This document shows positions 26,698 through 60,595 of a stretch of DNA of 64,000 nucleotides, piece after piece. Position 1 is the first letter of the stretch, and each line of letters opens with the position of its first letter. The notes beneath the pieces are model-generated. The model did no database searches and was not told the DNA's origin. It saw only the letters and a program-made list of their open reading frames with translations. The stretch is from IMG/VR virus record IMGVR_UViG_3300010885_003647, one strand, 5' to 3'. A program made the position numbers and the translations under genes. The DNA is from an uncultured virus (IMG/VR IMGVR_UViG_3300010885_003647) (lineage: Duplodnaviria; Heunggongvirae; Uroviricota; Caudoviricetes).

Positions 26698-28281
26698 ATG
26701 GCAGATGTAACCATAGAAAACCTACCCTTAGCGAACGTCATTGTTCCTAGCGTCGATGTACTGCCTTTGGTTACAGGTACTGGCACACTGATTACAAAGA
26801 AGGCAACTGCCAATGAAGTTGTTGCTTCCATACTAGAAACTGATCCATTATTTTCAGTTAGTGCTGTAGCTACAGGAACTCTTCCAGACGGCTCTACAGT
26901 AATCATTAATACCAACGGCACAGTAAGCGCGGTAACTGGAAACGCTGCAGTAGTAGGTAGCGATATTGTTTTTAGTGGATCATGTGTAAACCTACAAGCT
27001 TGCTGGATTACAGAATCCAATGTAATTGCCATCGTATATCAAAGTACTGTTGACGACACCATTCAGATTTATTCAGGTCAAGTCTCAGGAACAACCATTA
27101 ACTTTAACTATGCTGGTCCTGTTACATTAGCTACAGGCGCTCCCGATGGCGGAACATTCCCAACCATTTGCACGTACTATGGAAGCAGCCTTGTAATCGT
27201 TTCATACTCTCCAGTATCTGACAATCAACTATATGTAGTTGGTGTTGAAATTGATAGCGGCGCTAACATTACTGATGTAGGAACTCCAGTATTAGTGGAT
27301 TCTACATACACAACCAATCAGGCTGTAAGCGATTCTTATTTTGCTTTGCTAAATGTGTTTGATGGAGCTTTTTTCATTGCCTATCAAACAACTGATGGCG
27401 GTATCCGCGCGGCTTCAGTAACGGCATTTGGTACATCATTAACTTTATCTGGCTCGTATCAGCTATCTACATCAACCTATACTCCAGATATTACTCTAGG
27501 GTATTACAGTCCTTATTTGGTGGCTTTCTACCAAAACGGTAGTGGAGCAGGTATTACGATTGGCACGTTTAATGGGTCAACATTAACTGCAATTAATACC
27601 ATCAATTTGACAGGTTTTAACCTTACTCAAAATACATTTGCTTCTGTATTGCGATCTGATGGCTCTTTACTTGTGGCATTTGCTGAGGTAAATACAGGTG
27701 TTTTAGATGCCGTTGTTATCAGTATTAACTACACAACCTTTACTGCGACAATCCTAAACCGACAGCTTATTGATACATCTCCAGCAGTTGGGCGCAATGC
27801 AATTGCTATTTACCAATACCCTAATGGAACAGCCGACATCTTTTATGAAGTTACTGCAACAGGGCTATTAAAAGCAGCTAGAATCCAAGTGAACGCTGGT
27901 GGCATTATTAAAGTCACAGACGAGCTAGAATTAGTTCAAAGCGCTTTTTCTACAGCTTTATCTGTATCTCCTACAGGAACTGATTACCAGACTGTAGTAT
28001 TTTTTGAGTCTAGTTCAGATGGACAAAACTTCTTGATATACAACGCTGCAAACACCAACATGACTGACACAAACTTTATTGGCTTTTCTTATGGTGACTA
28101 CACCAATGGTCAAACTGCAATCGTTAAAACAATCGGAAGCGCAATAGCTGGACTTAGTGGTTTAGTTACAGGCTCGCATTACTACGTTACTGAAACAGGC
28201 GCTTTAAGCACTACACCTGGAAATCCAACAGTCAATGCTGGCACTGCCATTTCTACAACCGCTTTAACAATGAATGGCTAG
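26698..28281 (+). CDS. virion appendage protein, paralog 1 of 3
   Basis: Collinear similarity with the next two ORFs. Confidence 0.75.
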   Translation: MADVTIENLPLANVIVPSVDVLPLVTGTGTLITKKATANEVVASILETDPLFSVSAVATGTLPDGSTVIINTNGTVSAVTGNAAVVGSDIVFSGSCVNLQACWITESNVIAIVYQSTVDDTIQIYSGQVSGTTINFNYAGPVTLATGAPDGGTFPTICTYYGSSLVIVSYSPVSDNQLYVVGVEIDSGANITDVGTPVLVDSTYTTNQAVSDSYFALLNVFDGAFFIAYQTTDGGIRAASVTAFGTSLTLSGSYQLSTSTYTPDITLGYYSPYLVAFYQNGSGAGITIGTFNGSTLTAINTINLTGFNLTQNTFASVLRSDGSLLVAFAEVNTGVLDAVVISINYTTFTATILNRQLIDTSPAVGRNAIAIYQYPNGTADIFYEVTATGLLKAARIQVNAGGIIKVTDELELVQSAFSTALSVSPTGTDYQTVVFFESSSDGQNFLIYNAANTNMTDTNFIGFSYGDYTNGQTAIVKTIGSAIAGLSGLVTGSHYYVTETGALSTTPGNPTVNAGTAISTTALTMNG

Positions 28282-28284
28282 ATC

Positions 28285-29871
28285 ATGGCAGATATAAGAA
28301 TCACCGCGCTACCAGCAGCTACCGTTATTAATCCGGATGTTGATGTATTCCCATTGGTTACAAATAGCGGCACAGTTACAAGTAAATCTACTATAACTCA
28401 GTCATTTGGAGTCGCATTAAACTCAATAAACATACCATCTATTACTGCCACAGTAGGTTCATCAGGCATTACTATAGGCAAGCCTATAATTCTTAATAGC
28501 GATGGCACAATCAGTCAGGTTGCTGGAACTAATTCAGTGGTAGGCGCATCAGGTAGCGTTGGTAACGTTAGCACTCCTTATGTCAATATGCAGGGCGCAT
28601 ATATAGGCGGTGTTTCACAAGTCCTTGTTGTGTATCAAGAAACATCTACCAATACTATTCAGGTAATGGCTGGAACACTTGCAGGAACAACAATTACTTT
28701 TGGAACTCCAACAACTTTAGCTACAGGTGCAACTAGCGGTGGAACTTTCCCGACTATAACCTATGTTCAAAATACTACTAACCAAGCGGTAGTTAGCTAT
28801 TCTTTAGGGTCGACTGGCGTACTGTACGCTAGGGTTATCCAAGTTACTAATGTAGGTGTAATTACCGTAGGCACAGCTTTCCAAGTAGATTCAGTAAATA
28901 CAACAAATCAAGCCGTAGCAGCTTCTGCTTGGGTTGGTAGTCCTACGGTTGGAAAAGTCTGCCTTGCATATCAAACAGTTAGTGCTGGAATCTATGCAGC
29001 TACATTTACTCTAAGTGGCACAACAATATCTAGCGTTTCTGCACAGCAAATATCCACAACAACAACAGGTGAGATAGACCTGATTAATGTTAACGGGACT
29101 AACGTAGTAGCCCTATATCAAAACGATGTTACAGGGACTGTAAGCTTTTTAACTTGGAATGGTACGGGTTTAACTTTTAATGCTACTACCGAAATATCAG
29201 GTCTTAATTTATCGGCAAATACATTTGCAGCAAGCGCTTTAACTAGCGGTAACTTGCTTGTATCTTTTGCTGAACATACTACTGGAGTTTTAAGCGCTTT
29301 TGTATTGGGACTTAACTACACTACTTATGCAGTAACATTCGGTGGTAGACAGCTCATTGATACAGCTCCTGCGCTTGGGCGGGGTACGCTTAGTAACTAC
29401 ACATACCCTAACGGTACAGTTGGCATTTTTTATGAGTCACAAGCATTAAACGCTTTAAAGACAACCGTTGTGCAGGTAAATAGCGGAAACACTCTCAAGA
29501 TTGATGGAGTTTTGGCAATAGCTCAAAATGCTGCTGCTACTGCTCTTTATACATTCCCTACGATAAATGCTTTGCAAAACGTAGTGCTTTACTTCTCAAG
29601 CGTAAATAGCCAAAAGTACATGGTATATACAGCATCGTCTACTAACCTGACTGACTCAAACTTTCTTGGTTTTAGTGCTAATGGTTATAGTGCTGGCTAT
29701 GCTTACGGTATTGTATATACTTATGGTCGTTGGATTTTAGGTCAAACAGGATTAACTCCTGGACTGCGTTACTATGTTACTGAAACAGGCGGCCTATCCT
29801 TAACACCAGGAGTCCCAGAAGTTGCCGCAGGAACAGCCATTTCTACAACCTCTTTATTGATGAACGCTTAA
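28285..29871 (+). CDS. virion appendage protein, paralog 2 of 3
   Basis: Shared motifs MAD..I..LP, TFPTI, RQLIDT.P, YPNGT, NF.G.S, YYVTETG. Confidence 0.75.
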   Translation: MADIRITALPAATVINPDVDVFPLVTNSGTVTSKSTITQSFGVALNSINIPSITATVGSSGITIGKPIILNSDGTISQVAGTNSVVGASGSVGNVSTPYVNMQGAYIGGVSQVLVVYQETSTNTIQVMAGTLAGTTITFGTPTTLATGATSGGTFPTITYVQNTTNQAVVSYSLGSTGVLYARVIQVTNVGVITVGTAFQVDSVNTTNQAVAASAWVGSPTVGKVCLAYQTVSAGIYAATFTLSGTTISSVSAQQISTTTTGEIDLINVNGTNVVALYQNDVTGTVSFLTWNGTGLTFNATTEISGLNLSANTFAASALTSGNLLVSFAEHTTGVLSAFVLGLNYTTYAVTFGGRQLIDTAPALGRGTLSNYTYPNGTVGIFYESQALNALKTTVVQVNSGNTLKIDGVLAIAQNAAATALYTFPTINALQNVVLYFSSVNSQKYMVYTASSTNLTDSNFLGFSANGYSAGYAYGIVYTYGRWILGQTGLTPGLRYYVTETGGLSLTPGVPEVAAGTAISTTSLLMNA

Positions 29872-29873
29872 TC

Positions 29874-31436
29874 ATGGCAGACGTAAAAATATCAGAACTT
29901 CCTGCAGCTAGTACTATTAATAATTCAGTTGACGTTTTACCGATTGTTACAGATGGCGGTTTAGTTACAAGCAGAGCAACACCATACCAAGTCCTTGGCG
30001 CAGTATTAGACGCTACTCCTATTCCTTCTATTGGCGCGGTAGCAACAGGTGCTATTGGTGCAGGTTATACAGTTATTTTAAATAGCGATGGGACAGTAAG
30101 CGCAGTAACTGGAACTGCTTCAGTAATTGGAACGCCAGGTACTATTGTTTCTGGGATTAAAAACGCGCAGGGTGTATATGTACCTAATGGTGGACGTGTA
30201 GTTGTTGTATACCAAGAAACAACCAACCACTATATTCAGCTAATTCTTGGAACCCTTTCAGGATCTACAATTATTTTTGGAAGCCCAACAACCATTGCAA
30301 CAGGTGACTTGGACGACTTAACTTTCCCAACGATATGCGTTTATGAAGGAAGTGCTCTTATATGGGTTACCTACTCGCCAACATCAGATAACCAGCTTTA
30401 TATTATAGGCGTTGATACTTATGAAGGAGTTATTTCTTTAGGTACGCCTGTTTTAGCAGACTCTACATACTTAACAAGCCAAGCAGTAGCTTGCTCTCTT
30501 TGGGTTGGATCTCTTACCATTGGTGGAAAACCTTGCATTGCTTACCAAACAACTGACGGCGGTATTCGTGCAACTACATTTTCCATGAGTGGAACTTCCA
30601 TAACAAGTGTTAACGCTTCAATTGAGTTGTCTACAAGCACCACTACTGAGATAGATGGACATCAGATTGATGGAACGAATGTAGTGTTTTTCTTTACAGA
30701 AGGAAGCACAGGGGCGGTAAGTTTTTGCGAGTTTTCAGGTAGCCTAACGCTTTCTTCAACAACCTCATTGCCAAGTCTTAATCTAGCCCAAAGCACATAC
30801 TCTACTTCAGTATTAGATGACTTTAACTTACTCTTAGCGTTTGCTGAAGCAACCACTGGGGTTTTAGACGCGGTTGTATTAGAGCTTAATTACACCACCT
30901 ATGCTGTGACATTCGGTAACAGACAGCTTATTGATACAACTCCAAGTACTGGCTATGGCGCTATTAGTACTTACACCTATCCTAATGGAACTGTTGGTAT
31001 TTTCTACAATTCTCAGGCTCTTGATAACTTAAGAACAACTGTAGTGCAGGTTGACGATGGAAACATCATTAAAGTTGATGGCGTTACAACCCTAGTTCAA
31101 GGGGGAAATTCTAGCTACATGTGGACATTCCCTCTAGCTAACCCTTTGCAAAACGCAATTTTGTACTACAACGGGGTTCAAAACTACGTAACTTATACAG
31201 CTTCAACAACCAACCTGACAGATAAGAACTTTATCGGTTATTCCTATGCAGACTACGCCAATGGCGATACCGCTATTATCCAGACTCTTGGTAGTACAAT
31301 TGCTTCACAAGCAGGGTTAACCCCTGGAGTGCAGTACTATGTTACCGAAACTGGAGACCCAAGTGCTACCCCAGGAGTTCCCGTAGTAAATGCAGGGACA
31401 GGACTGACCACAACCTCTTTATTATTTAACAACTAA
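29874..31436 (+). CDS. virion appendage protein, paralog 3 of 3
   Basis: Same shared motifs as paralogs 1 and 2. Confidence 0.75.
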   Translation: MADVKISELPAASTINNSVDVLPIVTDGGLVTSRATPYQVLGAVLDATPIPSIGAVATGAIGAGYTVILNSDGTVSAVTGTASVIGTPGTIVSGIKNAQGVYVPNGGRVVVVYQETTNHYIQLILGTLSGSTIIFGSPTTIATGDLDDLTFPTICVYEGSALIWVTYSPTSDNQLYIIGVDTYEGVISLGTPVLADSTYLTSQAVACSLWVGSLTIGGKPCIAYQTTDGGIRATTFSMSGTSITSVNASIELSTSTTTEIDGHQIDGTNVVFFFTEGSTGAVSFCEFSGSLTLSSTTSLPSLNLAQSTYSTSVLDDFNLLLAFAEATTGVLDAVVLELNYTTYAVTFGNRQLIDTTPSTGYGAISTYTYPNGTVGIFYNSQALDNLRTTVVQVDDGNIIKVDGVTTLVQGGNSSYMWTFPLANPLQNAILYYNGVQNYVTYTASTTNLTDKNFIGYSYADYANGDTAIIQTLGSTIASQAGLTPGVQYYVTETGDPSATPGVPVVNAGTGLTTTSLLFNN

Positions 31437-54922: not shown

Positions 54923-57900
54923 ATGCCATTAGTTAATGTTGAAGGTGTAGGTCTAATCGACTTTCCTGAAGGTATGTCGGGCGAGCAAATTGATGCTGCG
55001 GTTAGAAAAGATATCCTTCCACAATACCCCGATATTGCCGCTAAAACAAAACGTGGATGGGGTGAAGCCCTAACTGACGTAGGCGCTAGTGCTATTAAAG
55101 GTGTTGGTGCTTTAGCTCAGTTACCTGGGCAGATTGGGCAATTAGCAGGTGTTGTAGCTCCTACCGAAACTAATACTGGATTGCAAGGTATCGGTAAACA
55201 AATAGAACAGTTTGGTGAAGAAGCTAAATCTCCAATACTTAAAGGTAAAGAAGTAGTACGTGGACAAAAGATTGAACAAGCAGATGGAATGCTTTCTGAA
55301 TTTGGTACTGCTTTTAAAGAGACAATTAAAGACCCAGCATTACTATCTTCATTCTTTGCAGAACAATTACCAAACTTAGCTGGTTCATGGGGTGGTGGCT
55401 TACTAGCTAAAGGTACAGCTAAAGCTTTGATGATGGCTACTACTGAACAAGCATTGGCTAAAGTAGGGGTTGCAGGTGCGGTTGGTACAGGCGCTATCCA
55501 ACAAGGTGCTGATGTTGGTTCTGATACTTACGAAACCATCTACAAACGTCTTATTAAAGAAGGTATGGGGGATGAGCAAGCTAATGGTATTGCTTTATCC
55601 AAGGCTCGTGTAGCCGCTTTAGAAGCCGCAGGTTTATCTTTAGGTACAGCCGCACTTCCTGGTGGTACTGCTATTGAACGTGCATTAGTTGGTAAGGGTT
55701 TACCTGGAGCTGGTGGATTTACTAAAGGTCTTTTGGGCGAAACAGCTTCTGAAACTATCGAAGAAGGTGGTGGTAAGCTTGCATCCAACTTAGGCGTACA
55801 AGAAGTATTTCCTGAGACAAGTTTAACTAAAGGTGTAGGTGCCGCTGCAGGTATGGGCGCACTGGGCGGTGCATTGTTTGGTGGTGTTGCTGGATATGTA
55901 AATGCAGACCGGGCTACTCCTGAACAGAAACAAATAGTAGCTGATGGTATCGATACTGTACAACAGCTAGAAGATCAAGCTCGCCGTGATGCGTTTGAAG
56001 CCGAGCAAAAAGCTATTGAACTCCGTGCCTTGGAAGAACGTCATGGGTTTACAAATTCAGCAGCATACGCTGAACTATCTGCAGAAGTAGAAAGATTAAA
56101 AGCAAAAGCCCAATTAGCGTTCGCTAAAGCGGATAAAGGTAAAGCAGAGATGTCTGCGTTTGCAGAAGCGCAACCTGATTTGTTTGGAATGGTTACTGCC
56201 GAAAAACAAACACAAGAAGCTGAAGTTCAGCCACCTGTAGAACAACCTAATCAATTATCTTTACCTCTTGAAGATCAACAATCACTTGCACTTAACGCTC
56301 CACCGCAACCATTAAATTTAAACTTACCTGCTCAGACGCAAGCTCCAGTAGTTCAAGGTCGCCCTATTACGCTAGAAGATATTAAAGGTATGGGTATTGG
56401 TGGTGGTCCAAACGTAAAGATCAAACAAGCTATTTTAGGTAAAGATTTAACTGACCCTAAACAAGCTGCAGAAGTTAAAGCTGCTTTGGAAGAATACGCT
56501 GGTGGTGATCGTAGTGCTAGCATTATTGCTAAAGTAGAAAGATTTTTAAATAGCGCTCCATTCCTAGAACAACAAAAACTTAGTTTGCGTCGCCCGTATG
56601 GTAGTATGAAGAAACCTGGAGTAGAAACTCCAACGGAAGAAGAACAAGCACTCTATCAAGCGGAACTAGAAGCACTACAAACATCGGAGGAACAAAATGC
56701 TGGAAAACCTATTGAACCTCTCAATGGAGGAAATGAGCCAAGCGTTCGCGTGCCTAGCAAGCGACCTGCCATCCCCACCGCAACTAAAAAACCTAAACGA
56801 CGAGGAGTGGTTCCTCCTGTCGATACTACTGGACAACCTATTGGAGCAGAAGTACCAGTCGAGCGTACACTAGGCGCAAAACCATTAACCTTAGAAGAAA
56901 AAGCGGCGCAGGCTATTGCCCAGCGTCAAGCCCCTAAAGGTGGTTACAACCCAGATATTCAAGAACCTTCTGTAGAACTCAGTACTCGTCATGCTAGAGA
57001 ATACAAAGAAGCTATTGGTAACTACTTAGAAAACGCAAACTATATAGGAGCTAAGGCTCTTGATGCACTTGCTGGTGATATGCACGCTGGGGACAACCTT
57101 ACAGATGCTAAGAGAGCGTACCGTGGGTTATCTGAAGAACAAAAGGCTTACGTAGCAGAGAAAACTAAAGAGTTAGAGAAGTACACTCGTCGTGGTGATG
57201 CGTATGCTAAACAACAAAACGAAGAAGTCGCAAGACGTAAAGCTTTCCAAGGTGAACTTGACGAACAAGAGAAAAGCCCTAAGCTTGAACGCATCCTTCC
57301 TGGTTCAACAAACGAAGAGCTTACGCAAGCTGTGCAACGGGGCGACCTTAACGCAGCACTAAACGCAATCGCCAAAGACAAATCTGACACATTTAACATC
57401 TTAGAGAAACTGGTCTCAAATCGCCTTTTGGCAAATAAAGGTAGCCTACCTAAGATTGAAGTTGTACCCGCTGGAACTATTAAAGATGGCGCAGCGCAAT
57501 ACAATCCGTTTACCGATACCGTTCAGATCAATGAGGGTGAGGTTGATTCGCATACTGTGCTACATGAAACCGTTCATGGCTTCTTGCACGCATTGATTCA
57601 GAAGTTTGAGGCAGGTGCTAAGAACAAAGGTATTGCTGATCTTAAAACTCTATACGACTTTATTAAAGAGAACCACCCTAACGTAGCAGAAGAATATGGC
57701 ATGTCTAGCTTGACTGAGTTTGCATCTGAACTTATGTCTAACCGCCAATTCCAAGAAACCCTTGCACAGATTCCATATCGTGCAGAAGCTCAAAACTTAT
57801 TTAGTGCATTCATACGCGCTGTATTAAACGCATTAGGGTTATCCCCAACATCTAAGTTAAGCGCACTAGCTAGCGGCTTGTTTGCGGCAGATCGTTCCCT

Positions 57901-60595
57901 TGCTATAGGTCGTAAGATTCAAGAGGATGTAGTTACAGGTAAAGAGACCTTACCTACGGCTAAAGTAACCCGAGACTTAGAAGCCATATATAAAGCTACT
58001 GGACCAAAAACAGTAAAGCCTGCTACTACGCCAATACAGTCAGTTCAAAATACTAAGAAAGAAATTAAAAACTTAGCGTCTAGTTTTGAGACTATGTATC
58101 TGTCATCTGATGCTGCTTTAAACAATGCTATTCGTAAGGGTCTAGAAGCTAACGGCAAGGATTGGGATACTACTAAGAACGCAATGCTTGAAATAAGCAC
58201 CTCTCAGGCTACTCATGCCGATGCTGTGGCAGATCAATTCTTAAGAGAAGGTAATGTTGAGTACGACCCTAAGTTACATAAGTGGGAAGTCAAATCTGCC
58301 AAAGATAGCTGGGCAAAACTAATTACAAAAAACTTAGCTGATATTGCTAAGAAGTATGGTATTACTCAAGACCAAGCAAACAATTATGCTAACCAAGCTT
58401 TGGTTGCTAGCCGTTTAGATGGACTATCTAAATCAGATAAAGAAATCTACAGTCACATGACCCCTGAGCAGATTAAGGCTGGTCTATCATTCTTTGAAGC
58501 AATACCTGAGCTAAAGGCAGTTCGAGATAGTTGGAATGCAATTCGTAAAAATGTAATGAAGGTAGCAATTGAAGGCGGTTTGTACAACGAACAACAAGCT
58601 GAAGAACTACTAAAGATTATGGACTATGTGCCATTTTTCCGTATTGAGCAATTAGAACAGAACGCTGGGCCTAGTGAACGTGGTGGTCGTGGTTTACTTA
58701 ACTTTGCTAAGAACTACAAGATTAAAGGTAGTGAGCAGGAAGTTAACGATATCTTTGATAACATGGGTCGTTGGACTAGCTATACCGTATCCCGTGCAGT
58801 TAAGAACCGTTCCGCATTAAGCTTAAAGAATGCTGCAATTCAATTCCTACCAGAAGGCGAAGTGAAAGAATTACGCATAGACGAGAGTACAAAGAAAGAA
58901 CAACACGTAATTGATATATGGGAAAATGGACAACGTAGGAAATACGAATTTTCAGATCCATTGTTTATACATGCTTTCCAAGGTATTGATGGTATAGCTA
59001 TCCCTCATTTTGGTATGGCGCAAGCGGCATCTAATATATTACGTAAGACTATTGTAATGGTGCCTATCTTTTCTATTAGTCAGCTTTCTCAAGATTCGTT
59101 TGGTGCTATGCTTACTTCAGGACTTAAGCACCCTTGGGCATTACCATTAGAAGTAGTTAAAGAATTTACTAAGACTCTATTTAATAAAAGTAAAACCCAT
59201 AAAGAACTGACCGCTATCGGTGCAGTAGGGACAAAAGATTATTCTGCAACTACTGGGTTATTGGGTGCTACTAGACGAGAGACTATTGAAAGAGAAGCAG
59301 GGTTAAAGAAGACTCCTATTTGGTCTCGTTTATATAACAGTTTAGAAAAGTTCTCAATGACATCTGATAATGCTGTTCGTCAAGCTGTTTATAATTTGAC
59401 CATGAAAGAAACTGGGGATAAAGCTTTAGCTACTGAGAAGGCTTTTGAACTTATTAACTTTAAACGTACAGGTGCTAGCGCTAAGGTGCAATTGCTTCGT
59501 CAGGTAATACCATTCTTTGGCGCATACTTGCAAGCACAAAACGTTATCTATAAGACTCTAGCTGGTAAAGGCATATCTCCAGTACAACGTAAAGAAGCCC
59601 ATCGTATCTTAGCTAGTAATGCTTTGAAGATCGGTGCTTTAGCGTTTATGTATGCCGCCCTTGCAAGTGATGATGAAGAGTATCAGAAGATGGATCCAGC
59701 TATACGTGACCGTCATTTATTAATTCCTGGTACAAACTTCATGCTCCCTATGCGTAGCGATTTGACTTTAATGCCTAAGTTAATTGCGGAATACACCTAT
59801 CTTGGTATGACAGATAATGGCTTTACGGATGGTAAAAAGATTCGCCGTGCTATGACTGATGCCCTTGTCAATGCAGTACTAAGCCCAACCGTTGCACCGC
59901 AAGCAATTAAACCAGCCTTAGAGGTATTGGTAAACTACGACTTCTTTACAGATCGCCCAATTATCGGACAGGGTATTGAGCACAAAATTACTGCAGAGCA
60001 GTATACAAATAGTACATCTGAATTTGGTAAGTTTATTGGTAGTTCGGGATTGATTGCACCTGTGAATGTAGACCACTTGGTTAAAGGCTATATGGGTACT
60101 GTAGGGGGATTAGGGTTAATGTTTACAAATGCTGTTGTAAACGCAGGTTCAGACCAACCAAAACCCGAAAAGAGTCTCCAAGATACTGTTTCTTCTGTAC
60201 CTGGATTGAGTGCGTTTTTTGCAAAAGAGTATGGCAACGCAGATAAGAACGATTTCTATGAGTTACGTAAAGATGTAGATAAGGCAGTAACTACATTTAA
60301 TTCAATGAAAAAGCAAGGGCGTGTTGCAGAGGCTAAAGAGTTTTTAGAAGAAGGTACATTGAATCCTCTTAACCCATTTAGCCCAAATGTAAAAGACTTA
60401 CTTAAAGTTAATAAGCAGGTGGACAACATTAACAACCAGCTAACCAAGCTAAGAGATTACGAAAAGAAAATATACGACTTGCCTGAGTCTAGGATGAGTG
60501 CAGAAAAGAAAGGTGAAGAGATTCGCCGTGTTCGGGAGATGGAGAAAGTATATTTAAGTAATGTGCACAAGCTACGCCAAATGGCTGGCTATTAA
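54923..60595 (+). CDS. large polyvalent internal virion protein with zincin-like HExxH domain and LPD38-like C-terminus
   Basis: 1890 aa; TVLHETVHG...EFASE; C-terminal NYDFFTDRPI...DHLVKGYMG. Confidence 0.75.
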   Translation: MPLVNVEGVGLIDFPEGMSGEQIDAAVRKDILPQYPDIAAKTKRGWGEALTDVGASAIKGVGALAQLPGQIGQLAGVVAPTETNTGLQGIGKQIEQFGEEAKSPILKGKEVVRGQKIEQADGMLSEFGTAFKETIKDPALLSSFFAEQLPNLAGSWGGGLLAKGTAKALMMATTEQALAKVGVAGAVGTGAIQQGADVGSDTYETIYKRLIKEGMGDEQANGIALSKARVAALEAAGLSLGTAALPGGTAIERALVGKGLPGAGGFTKGLLGETASETIEEGGGKLASNLGVQEVFPETSLTKGVGAAAGMGALGGALFGGVAGYVNADRATPEQKQIVADGIDTVQQLEDQARRDAFEAEQKAIELRALEERHGFTNSAAYAELSAEVERLKAKAQLAFAKADKGKAEMSAFAEAQPDLFGMVTAEKQTQEAEVQPPVEQPNQLSLPLEDQQSLALNAPPQPLNLNLPAQTQAPVVQGRPITLEDIKGMGIGGGPNVKIKQAILGKDLTDPKQAAEVKAALEEYAGGDRSASIIAKVERFLNSAPFLEQQKLSLRRPYGSMKKPGVETPTEEEQALYQAELEALQTSEEQNAGKPIEPLNGGNEPSVRVPSKRPAIPTATKKPKRRGVVPPVDTTGQPIGAEVPVERTLGAKPLTLEEKAAQAIAQRQAPKGGYNPDIQEPSVELSTRHAREYKEAIGNYLENANYIGAKALDALAGDMHAGDNLTDAKRAYRGLSEEQKAYVAEKTKELEKYTRRGDAYAKQQNEEVARRKAFQGELDEQEKSPKLERILPGSTNEELTQAVQRGDLNAALNAIAKDKSDTFNILEKLVSNRLLANKGSLPKIEVVPAGTIKDGAAQYNPFTDTVQINEGEVDSHTVLHETVHGFLHALIQKFEAGAKNKGIADLKTLYDFIKENHPNVAEEYGMSSLTEFASELMSNRQFQETLAQIPYRAEAQNLFSAFIRAVLNALGLSPTSKLSALASGLFAADRSLAIGRKIQEDVVTGKETLPTAKVTRDLEAIYKATGPKTVKPATTPIQSVQNTKKEIKNLASSFETMYLSSDAALNNAIRKGLEANGKDWDTTKNAMLEISTSQATHADAVADQFLREGNVEYDPKLHKWEVKSAKDSWAKLITKNLADIAKKYGITQDQANNYANQALVASRLDGLSKSDKEIYSHMTPEQIKAGLSFFEAIPELKAVRDSWNAIRKNVMKVAIEGGLYNEQQAEELLKIMDYVPFFRIEQLEQNAGPSERGGRGLLNFAKNYKIKGSEQEVNDIFDNMGRWTSYTVSRAVKNRSALSLKNAAIQFLPEGEVKELRIDESTKKEQHVIDIWENGQRRKYEFSDPLFIHAFQGIDGIAIPHFGMAQAASNILRKTIVMVPIFSISQLSQDSFGAMLTSGLKHPWALPLEVVKEFTKTLFNKSKTHKELTAIGAVGTKDYSATTGLLGATRRETIEREAGLKKTPIWSRLYNSLEKFSMTSDNAVRQAVYNLTMKETGDKALATEKAFELINFKRTGASAKVQLLRQVIPFFGAYLQAQNVIYKTLAGKGISPVQRKEAHRILASNALKIGALAFMYAALASDDEEYQKMDPAIRDRHLLIPGTNFMLPMRSDLTLMPKLIAEYTYLGMTDNGFTDGKKIRRAMTDALVNAVLSPTVAPQAIKPALEVLVNYDFFTDRPIIGQGIEHKITAEQYTNSTSEFGKFIGSSGLIAPVNVDHLVKGYMGTVGGLGLMFTNAVVNAGSDQPKPEKSLQDTVSSVPGLSAFFAKEYGNADKNDFYELRKDVDKAVTTFNSMKKQGRVAEAKEFLEEGTLNPLNPFSPNVKDLLKVNKQVDNINNQLTKLRDYEKKIYDLPESRMSAEKKGEEIRRVREMEKVYLSNVHKLRQMAGY
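56697..56873 (+). CDS. overprinted 58-aa protein in the +1 frame inside the large virion protein gene
   Basis: GGAGG-6 nt-ATG; MLENLLNLSMEEMSQAFACLASDLPSPPQLKNLNDEEWFLLSILLDNLLEQKYQSSVH; the host frame is a disordered linker here. Confidence 0.6.
   Translation: MLENLLNLSMEEMSQAFACLASDLPSPPQLKNLNDEEWFLLSILLDNLLEQKYQSSVH

Follow-up and report, generated by a model that had tools for sequence, protein, structure and literature searches.

The stretch of DNA analyzed here, hereafter the window, comprises 64,000 nucleotides (nt) of an uncultured virus of the Caudoviricetes (IMG/VR record IMGVR_UViG_3300010885_003647). Within it, nt 56697–56873 very probably constitute a real gene with independent initiation, which overprints, in the +1 frame, a tolerant linker segment of the gene for a giant polyvalent protein, the latter being referred to below as the host gene. 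In the proposed mechanism, ribosomes would start independently at the GGAGG sequence and the ATG at 56697 within the host mRNA, and translation would yield an acidic helical-bundle protein of about 58 amino acids (aa) whose stop is positionally conserved. The host frame would read the same DNA as a spacer of little sequence importance. Three lines of comparative evidence speak for this nested gene, namely its conservation, its own initiation signals and the purifying selection detected on its frame.

A first-pass annotation, made from the letters of the window only, had described a GGAGG Shine-Dalgarno (SD) sequence at 56686–56690, an ATG at 56697 and 58 codons in the +1 frame, all of which were borne out by the sequence. 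With respect to the open reading frame (ORF) of the host gene, at 54923–60595, the frame of the nested ORF is +1, since (56697 − 54923) mod 3 = 1. The peptide, named P0001, begins with MLENLL and ends with QSSVH; it had been described as an acidic, Leu-rich, helical protein ending in SSVH, which agrees with its net charge of −7, its richness in leucine and the helices predicted for it by AlphaFold2 (AF2). In the host frame, this DNA encodes NAGKPIEPLNGGNEPSVRVPSKRPAIPTATKKPKRRGVVPPVDTTGQPIGAEVPVERTL, a segment rich in Pro, Gly, Arg and Lys and weakly constrained, matching the Pro/Arg-rich linker reported earlier. The HETVH motif, which had been placed about 0.7 kb downstream, corresponds to residues 881–885 of the host protein (nt 57563–57577) and lies 690 nt 3′ of the nested stop.

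The search for relatives with the host protein gave 32 loci on viral contigs. One of them (L001) is identical in its DNA to the window. A second one (L002) encodes a host protein 62% identical overall and 43% identical over residues 480–800, and it contains a nested homolog of 67 aa in the +1 frame, preceded by AGGAG with 7 nt to its ATG and ending at a positionally matching stop. Additionally, 129 nested-gene loci (L033–L161) were obtained when viral and metagenome contigs were scanned with back-translated peptide patterns, the first of these scans yielding L034–L039 from viral contigs and L041–L043 from metagenome contigs. Nine distinct sequences, with 70–91% identity in local nucleotide alignments around the overlap, were compared. 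The nested ORF was open in all nine, starting with ATG in eight and with GTG in one, and the enclosing host ORF had at least 795 aa.

The profile built from these nine sequences led to a distant, GC-richer relative (L018/L019), whose host protein of 2278 aa is about 37% identical. Its nested copy has 74 aa, is preceded by AGGAGG with 6 nt to the ATG, ends in ...SRLH and occupies the equivalent relative position; against the wider profile it scored an E-value of 9.3e-15. Two sub-alignments, A5 and A6, and the L018 copy were used as patterns in the later viral-contig scans; these confirmed 237 (80 of them retained), 33 and 6 stretches, the last 6 belonging to 5 loci. The total of confirmed viral-contig stretches is at least 270. 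The hidden Markov model (HMM) of the family matched all 129 loci, and in 128 of them the match lay wholly within an ORF of at least 500 aa, in the +1 frame in every case; the sole locus not enveloped, L111, is cut by the end of its contig. Among 25 representative carriers, the nested stop was situated 300–730 aa into the open host frame, these values being lower bounds in the four carriers whose frame starts at a contig end.

The nine-sequence profile was also run against a library of 1.84 billion proteins, where 128 cluster representatives were matched at E ≤ 1e-3, five of them at E ≤ 1e-10. These 128 representatives were mostly 55–75 aa long, the matches reached the C-terminus in nearly all of them, and the terminal residue was His in 90, Gln in 30, Asn in five and another residue in three. 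The matches in the word-indexed library were unnamed single-member clusters (one had three members), from one or two mostly short contigs each and with no Pfam domain. Complete records of the carrier phage group, which is uncultured, are about 60–67 kb long. When five carrier records were searched whole, one copy was found in each, and these served as a positive control (5/5) for a profile search of the five cultured phages closest by terminase (DSL-LC04, 023Pt_psg01, HTVC027P, HTVC023P and MinM2), in which the nested gene was found in none (0/5). Similarly, tblastn of P0001 and P0016 gave no match in cultured phages at E ≤ 1, and in 185,579 prokaryote (bacterial and archaeal) genomes 226 pattern matches were obtained, none of which was confirmed. 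The nested family appears to be old, and it is nested in a polyvalent protein in every locus recovered.

The selection acting on the two frames was analyzed in sliding windows of 45 codons along a codon alignment in the host frame, which covered the nine sequences and had about 1500 usable columns. The identity of the +1 frame exceeded that of the host frame only at host residues 559–672, where it peaked at 0.77 versus 0.57–0.58 and no stops occurred in the +1 frame; outside this region it was lower than that of the host frame by roughly 0.1–0.3. In the core of 44 codons of the nine sequences, the proportions of nonsynonymous (pN) and synonymous (pS) differences were 0.144 and 0.434 in the nested frame and 0.254 and 0.093 in the host frame; pN was the smaller of the two in all 36 pairs for the nested frame and in none of the 36 for the host frame. 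The nucleotide diversity of the same core at nested positions 1, 2 and 3 was 0.197, 0.110 and 0.315, respectively; the lowest value fell on nested position 2, which is position 3 of the host codon, so that the third position of the host frame was the least variable. Among 102 distinct copies, the nested frame had an amino-acid identity of 0.50, compared with 0.30 for the host frame and 0.34 for the third.

An overlap-aware ratio (dNN/dNS), in which nested-nonsynonymous changes are compared with nested-synonymous changes at host-nonsynonymous sites, was estimated as well. It was 0.42 (95% confidence interval, CI, 0.28–0.59) in the window clade (n = 9), 0.52 (95% CI 0.39–0.67) in the A5 set (n = 61) and 0.68 (95% CI 0.54–0.83) in the A6 set (n = 28), remaining below 1 in all 1000 bootstraps of each of the three sets. 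The host-frame ratio dNN/dSN was 1.35–1.6. Together, the diversity, the pN and pS values and the overlap ratios indicate that this DNA is selected as nested protein, the host frame being merely kept open, and they argue for purifying selection on the nested frame beyond the constraint imposed by the host frame.

These data also bear on the possibility that the region is not translated, its conservation being due to a nucleic-acid element or to a host-frame motif such as EPSV.VPS, with the open +1 frame as a by-product. The window clade does conserve the host-frame motifs EPSVRVPS, RRG.VP and GQPIG, as this explanation would expect. Nevertheless, the variation peaks at nested position 3 (host position 1) and reaches its minimum at nested position 2 (host position 3), the opposite of what selection on the host frame produces, and the excess of nested-synonymous changes appears in the three sets. 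The nested frame shows conservative substitutions and retains its start, its SD sequence and its stop. Finally, the local RNA is not unusually structured, since around the initiation region of the window its structure was no greater than that of shuffled sequences (z +0.71). An untranslated +1 frame was consequently regarded as extremely improbable.

Signals for an independent start were found throughout the family. In 100 of the 102 distinct copies the conserved core was preceded by, or began with, a start codon (ATG in 67, GTG in 23 and TTG in 10), and the remaining two copies, which were mis-aligned, do carry an ATG. An SD-like tetramer (GGAG, GAGG or AGGA) was observed 4–17 nt 5′ of the start in 97 of the 102 copies. 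As a control, the same procedure was applied to other +1 open segments of the same host ORFs, where such a motif was detected in 244 of 2181 (11%), and to single +1 ATGs elsewhere, where it was detected in 168 of 3099 (5.4%). The position of the start shifts among clades, each of them retaining its own SD sequence and start codon. The first-pass annotation had named the retention of the SD sequence, the ATG and the open +1 frame in homologs as a check, and the counts of 97 copies with the motif and 128 of 129 enveloped loci agree with this. The initial proposal of an overprinted gene with its own SD sequence and start in a tolerant linker is thus strongly supported by the conservation in relatives, the initiation signals and the selection. 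Furthermore, no + strand sigma-70-like promoter site was found within nt 55900–57300, and because of this lack of a promoter-like site nearby the nested gene is probably read from the host mRNA.

A programmed +1 (or −2) ribosomal frameshift would offer another route to the same peptide, the +1 segment being in that case the alternative C-terminus of a truncated N-terminal product of about 590 aa. Such a frameshifted tail would equally fit a conserved +1 peptide with a fixed stop, and the SD-like motif could serve as a stimulator of the frameshift, a role that a motif of this kind plays in prfB. Against this stand the start codon found before the core in nearly all of the copies and the SD-like motif at initiation spacing, far more frequent than in the controls. 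The sequences 5′ of the start diverge among clades and have no slippery motif in common. In addition, the upstream stop in the +1 frame, whose median distance to the chosen start is 14 codons, is at most three codons away from it in 14 of 100 copies, which leaves almost no room for a shift; in two loci (L213 and L214) the order is TAG-AAA-ATG. Frameshifting was hence considered very unlikely, and independent initiation was preferred.

Several points weigh against this preferred reading. In the window sequence alone the length of the nested ORF is unremarkable (P 0.32–0.37), given that 37% of codon-order shuffles and 32% of synonymous-codon shuffles of the gene produced a +1 ORF of 58 codons or more beginning with ATG, and further off-frame ORFs of 56, 48, 47 and 46 aa exist on the + strand of the host gene. 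A single sequence is not above chance, and the significance of the nested ORF comes from the comparison with its relatives. Most of the family loci were ascertained via similarity to the nested peptide, a procedure that favors intact and conserved copies. The selection statistics are pairwise, use uncorrected distances and ignore the phylogeny, and the Glu-rich host sequence upstream of the start favors GGAG motifs by itself. Moreover, among the records found via the host protein, the gene was present in only 2 of the 25 that were searched whole and in 2 of the 7 that were at least 90% complete. The nested gene is therefore dispensable for the host protein family.

As a control of ascertainment, a search was performed with the upstream module of the host frame (residues 478–548), which is uninformative on the +1 frame. 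This search found 56 loci, 46 of which contained a nested homolog in the +1 frame, 160–418 nt 3′ of the start of the module. Forty-five of these 46 homologs were intact, and L212 retained the N-terminal half only. The apparent internal stop of L213 and L214 is the TAG just 5′ of their ATG, and L215 is truncated by the contig end. Eight of the 56 loci had ample downstream DNA and no nested homolog, adding to the points against, and two were too short to be judged. Selection of loci by the host frame thus answers the bias of the nested-peptide searches in part only.

The linker of some of these module-found loci lacking the nested gene (L181 at 1501–2040, L205 and L216) was seen to consist, after the module, of a short-period repeat (APEVVTEEV..., KNEV... 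or DADADA...), as if another spacer had taken the place of the overprinted one. Separately, the record of L008 (G016, C1:206–382), a complete one bearing terminal repeats, has the nested gene about 200 nt into the contig and the portion coding for the C-terminus of the giant protein close to the other end, which places the break of the assembly within the giant gene.

To describe the product itself, P0001 was modeled with AF2, which gave a compact, helical structure with a pLDDT of 84.2 when 9 sequences were used and of 85.7 with 106 sequences. The predicted helices span residues 3–6, 10–22, 28–32 and 35–56. Only W38 and L45 are invariant in the family, with L8, A16, L20, L30, L33 and L41 as near-invariants, and the median net charge of the family is −4. 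As the invariant positions are all core hydrophobics, with no catalytic-looking polar residue among them, we infer a non-enzymatic binder rather than an enzyme. A DNA binder is unlikely because the product is acidic.

No known relative of the product was recognized. At most 3 of 106 members matched any one Pfam family (best E 0.0013) and at most 5 of 106 any one PHROGs family (best E 0.009 among the matches listed), while the sequence profile of the family reached a best E of 0.91 against the PDB. With Foldseek, neither PDB nor BFVD yielded a match to the nested model at E ≤ 0.001, and the ESM Atlas search with the nested product, with a best score of 0.76, provided no lead. Hence, no curated family, PDB sequence or fold match above noise is available for the nested product.

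Several candidates were rejected. AcrIE3, the top PDB row of Foldseek, had a meaningless E-value of 2.4, and the homeodomain-like three-helix bundles (best VIA Z 5.4) were below the noise level stated for helical models. An identity as an o-spanin of the Rz1 type was discarded because the N-terminus, MLENLLNLSMEEM, has no hydrophobic signal and no lipobox, Cys19 is not conserved in the family and the host is an LPD38 polyvalent protein. Charge pairing of the acidic product with a basic host linker was likewise discarded, the charge of the overlapping host-frame segment spanning −11 to +5 across the family.

With regard to function, we lean toward an accessory binding factor that would be made together with the polyvalent protein. 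Action on other partners is typical of overprinted viral genes, and the nested product may well target some partner, of the cellular host or of the phage, that is not a fixed domain of the host protein, a proposal held with slightly less than even confidence.

The host gene encodes a polyvalent protein, as indicated by its giant size, its LPD38 domain (80.5 bits against a Pfam cut-off of 27), its putative zincin-like HExxH region and the occurrence of ART-PolyVal, LPD39, ddrB-ParB and HATPase_c domains in its relatives; in PHROGs it matches phrog_18222. Polyvalent proteins of phages and conjugative elements have been described previously (Iyer et al., 2017; PMC5512222). The window is a segment of a phage genome in which terminase, portal, head, tail-like and endolysin genes lie 5′ of the giant gene on the + strand, and a primase/helicase-like gene lies 3′ of it on the − strand. 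The nearest cultured phages by terminase are DSL-LC04, 023Pt_psg01 and the Pelagibacter phages HTVC027P and HTVC023P (54–56% identity), followed by the Synechococcus phage MinM2 (48%). When the giant gene was compared with cultured phages, megablast gave no match and tblastn aligned only residues 1140–1889, with less than 25% identity. The HExxH motif of the zincin-like region was retained in 70 of 71 jackhmmer matches, and the region had no Pfam match at E ≤ 0.1. The coordinates of the features are collected in Table 1.

Table 1. Features of the host gene and of the putative nested gene in the window.
Feature	Position (nt)	Strand	Remarks
Host gene, 1890-aa polyvalent-type giant protein	54923–60595	+	Last gene of the + strand structural/late block; LPD38, phrog_18222
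Upstream host-frame module, about 80 aa (host aa 478–560)	56354–56602	+	Helical-looking; just 5′ of the nested gene; motif GIG..LR..ILGKDL.DP...V...LE.YA....FL
TAG stop in the nested (+1) frame	56667–56669	+	9 codons 5′ of the nested ATG; bounds the open +1 frame on its 5′ side
Shine-Dalgarno sequence GGAGG	56686–56690	+	6-nt spacer to the nested ATG
Host-frame linker (host aa 592–651)	56696–56875	+	Pro/Gly/Arg/Lys-rich; overprinted; stays open, amino acids weakly constrained
Putative nested overprinted gene, product P0001	56697–56873	+	58 codons plus TAG (56871–56873); +1 frame of the host gene; supported by conservation and purifying selection
Zincin-like (HExxH) region (host aa 771–1010)	57233–57952	+	jackhmmer seed and matches; HETVH at 57563–57577
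LPD38 domain (host aa 1584–1754)	59672–60184	+	Pfam

The relation of the nested gene to the domains of its host protein was also analyzed. The first-pass annotation had suggested a dedicated inhibitor of the metallopeptidase-like domain, and this suggestion was not supported, given that the zincin-like domain and the nested gene were each found without the other. The domain was seen in 71 of 102 carrier loci, over the host part covered. In L018 the nested gene lies inside a complete host protein of 2278 aa without a zincin-like domain; conversely, five full-length relatives (L004, L009, L024, L026 and L027) have the domain and lack the nested gene. An effector–immunity pair formed with the zincin-like domain was accordingly not supported, the gene and the domain occurring together without being obligate companions. 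The upstream module was present in 54 of the 102 carrier loci and in none of seven full-length relatives (six without the nested gene plus L018, which is a carrier). Scanning of 20 host fragments revealed at least one of ART-PolyVal, HATPase_c, LPD39, LPD38 and ddrB-ParB in 15 of them, in varied combinations, and no match in the other five.

It was also observed that the hosts of L121, L123, L127, L141 and L148 carry an ART-PolyVal ADP-ribosyltransferase 3′ of the nested gene, in some cases with HATPase_c or ddrB-ParB, none of which occurs in the protein of the window. At the sequence level, the differences in ART-PolyVal, HATPase_c and ddrB-ParB among hosts show apparent effector swapping within the phage group.

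A broader proposal is that of a dedicated chaperone, keeper or immunity factor, in which the nested product would bind a constant part of the polyvalent protein during late expression and, by analogy with Rz1, whose binding partner is encoded by the gene around it, would hold the effector domains inactive or aid packaging. The location of the gene fits this proposal, as every copy that could be placed (128 of 129 loci) lay within a polyvalent gene and no standalone copy was encountered; the shared mRNA would fix the timing and the ratio of both products, the hydrophobic invariant residues suit a binder, and the upstream host module co-occurs in about half of the carriers. Nevertheless, an overprinted gene can hardly leave its host gene, so its location alone is uninformative. 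The zincin-like domain and the nested gene are separable in both directions, and so are the module and the gene, considering that 48 of the 102 carriers have no module and eight loci with the module have no gene. The effector domains downstream differ among hosts, and five of seven near-complete relatives have the giant protein and no nested gene. A prediction of the complex between host residues 478–651 (43-row alignment) and the nested protein (106-row alignment) scored 0.00 twice, without controls, and is no evidence either way. On balance, a keeper of this kind is possible but doubtful.

Because it is separable from the zincin-like region, from the upstream module and from most relatives of the host protein, the nested gene behaves like one more shuffled module of the polyvalent genes. 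The comparisons suggest that it is long-lived where present, and a partner may lie elsewhere in the host protein. A more specific version of the keeper, which we regard as rather unlikely, is that of a protein of ancient origin that arose de novo within polyvalent genes and serves as an in-cis safety catch or escort for a multi-effector polyprotein. If this were true, an acidic helical binder made from the same mRNA would hold the polyprotein inactive or packaging-competent in the producing cell and might even accompany it into the next host, and the arrangement would represent a general gene-within-gene answer to the self-toxicity of injected phage effectors.

Three other features of the window were recorded. 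The upstream module (host aa 478–560; GIG..LR..ILGKDL.DP...V...LE.YA....FL.RPEF), of about 70–80 aa, recurs in many polyvalent proteins, with 56 viral-contig loci and no Pfam match, and it may be an undescribed polyvalent-protein domain. An antisense ORF of 118 aa lies inside the giant gene on the − strand (57148–57504); five relatives in the nine-sequence alignment keep that frame open over no more than 59–87 codons, and by this comparison it looks like a chance ORF. Finally, three tandem paralogous genes are located at 26698–31436 on the + strand; their products of 527, 528 and 520 aa are 44–53% identical over their full length and have no PHROG match, and they may represent a triplicated structural or receptor-binding gene.

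The nested gene thus appears to define a small protein family concealed within a gene that ranks among the largest of a widespread uncultured phage group, with no Pfam or PHROG model, and would add an unannotated component to the arsenal of polyvalent proteins. It would also provide a clean natural example of a protein that is predicted to fold compactly and was probably born by overprinting. Identification of its partner could clarify how multi-effector polyproteins are managed by phages. To our knowledge, only a few overprinted genes are known from tailed double-stranded DNA (dsDNA) phages, where they escape standard gene callers; comparative scans of frame conservation in giant phage genes can reveal such genes.

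Among the known systems, the polyvalent proteins described by Iyer et al. (2017; PMC5512222) resemble the present host in being giant, with LPD38 and a putative zincin-like HExxH region, and in the varying order of the effector domains among relatives. In that article, the words "overlap" and "overlapping" have 0 occurrences, "nested" refers to a hairpin fold only, and a second-frame gene in polyvalent genes is not described. In the literature searched, no paper on a gene nested in polyvalent-protein genes was found.

The overprinted genes of small phages, such as E in D and K in A/C of phiX174 and L of MS2, encode mostly lysis proteins and belong to tiny genomes under strong size pressure. 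The nested gene is like them in encoding a short accessory protein of unusual composition, restricted to one virus lineage and placed where the older frame is tolerant. It differs in that it occurs in dsDNA phages of about 60–67 kb, inside a gene for 1890 aa, in that its product has no membrane segment, and in being better conserved than the frame that it overprints. The frameshifted tails of lambda G/GT and T7 10A/10B, which have no start of their own and depend on a slippery site, are similar in using a second frame over part of a late gene; unlike them, the nested gene has a conserved start and SD sequence and no shared slippery site.

The closest parallel is Rz1 in Rz of phage lambda, also a small gene lying fully within a larger phage gene in the +1 frame, with its own ribosome-binding site and start, from which a separate protein is made on a shared mRNA. 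As an outer-membrane lipoprotein, Rz1 carries a signal sequence and a lipobox Cys, and its binding partner is the Rz product. In contrast, the nested product has no N-terminal hydrophobic signal, the Cys seen in the window clade is not a conserved residue of the family, and the host is here a polyvalent virion-type protein instead of an i-spanin. By analogy with Rz1 in Rz, the nested gene is best placed as a new family within a known kind of arrangement, that of the embedded +1 phage gene.

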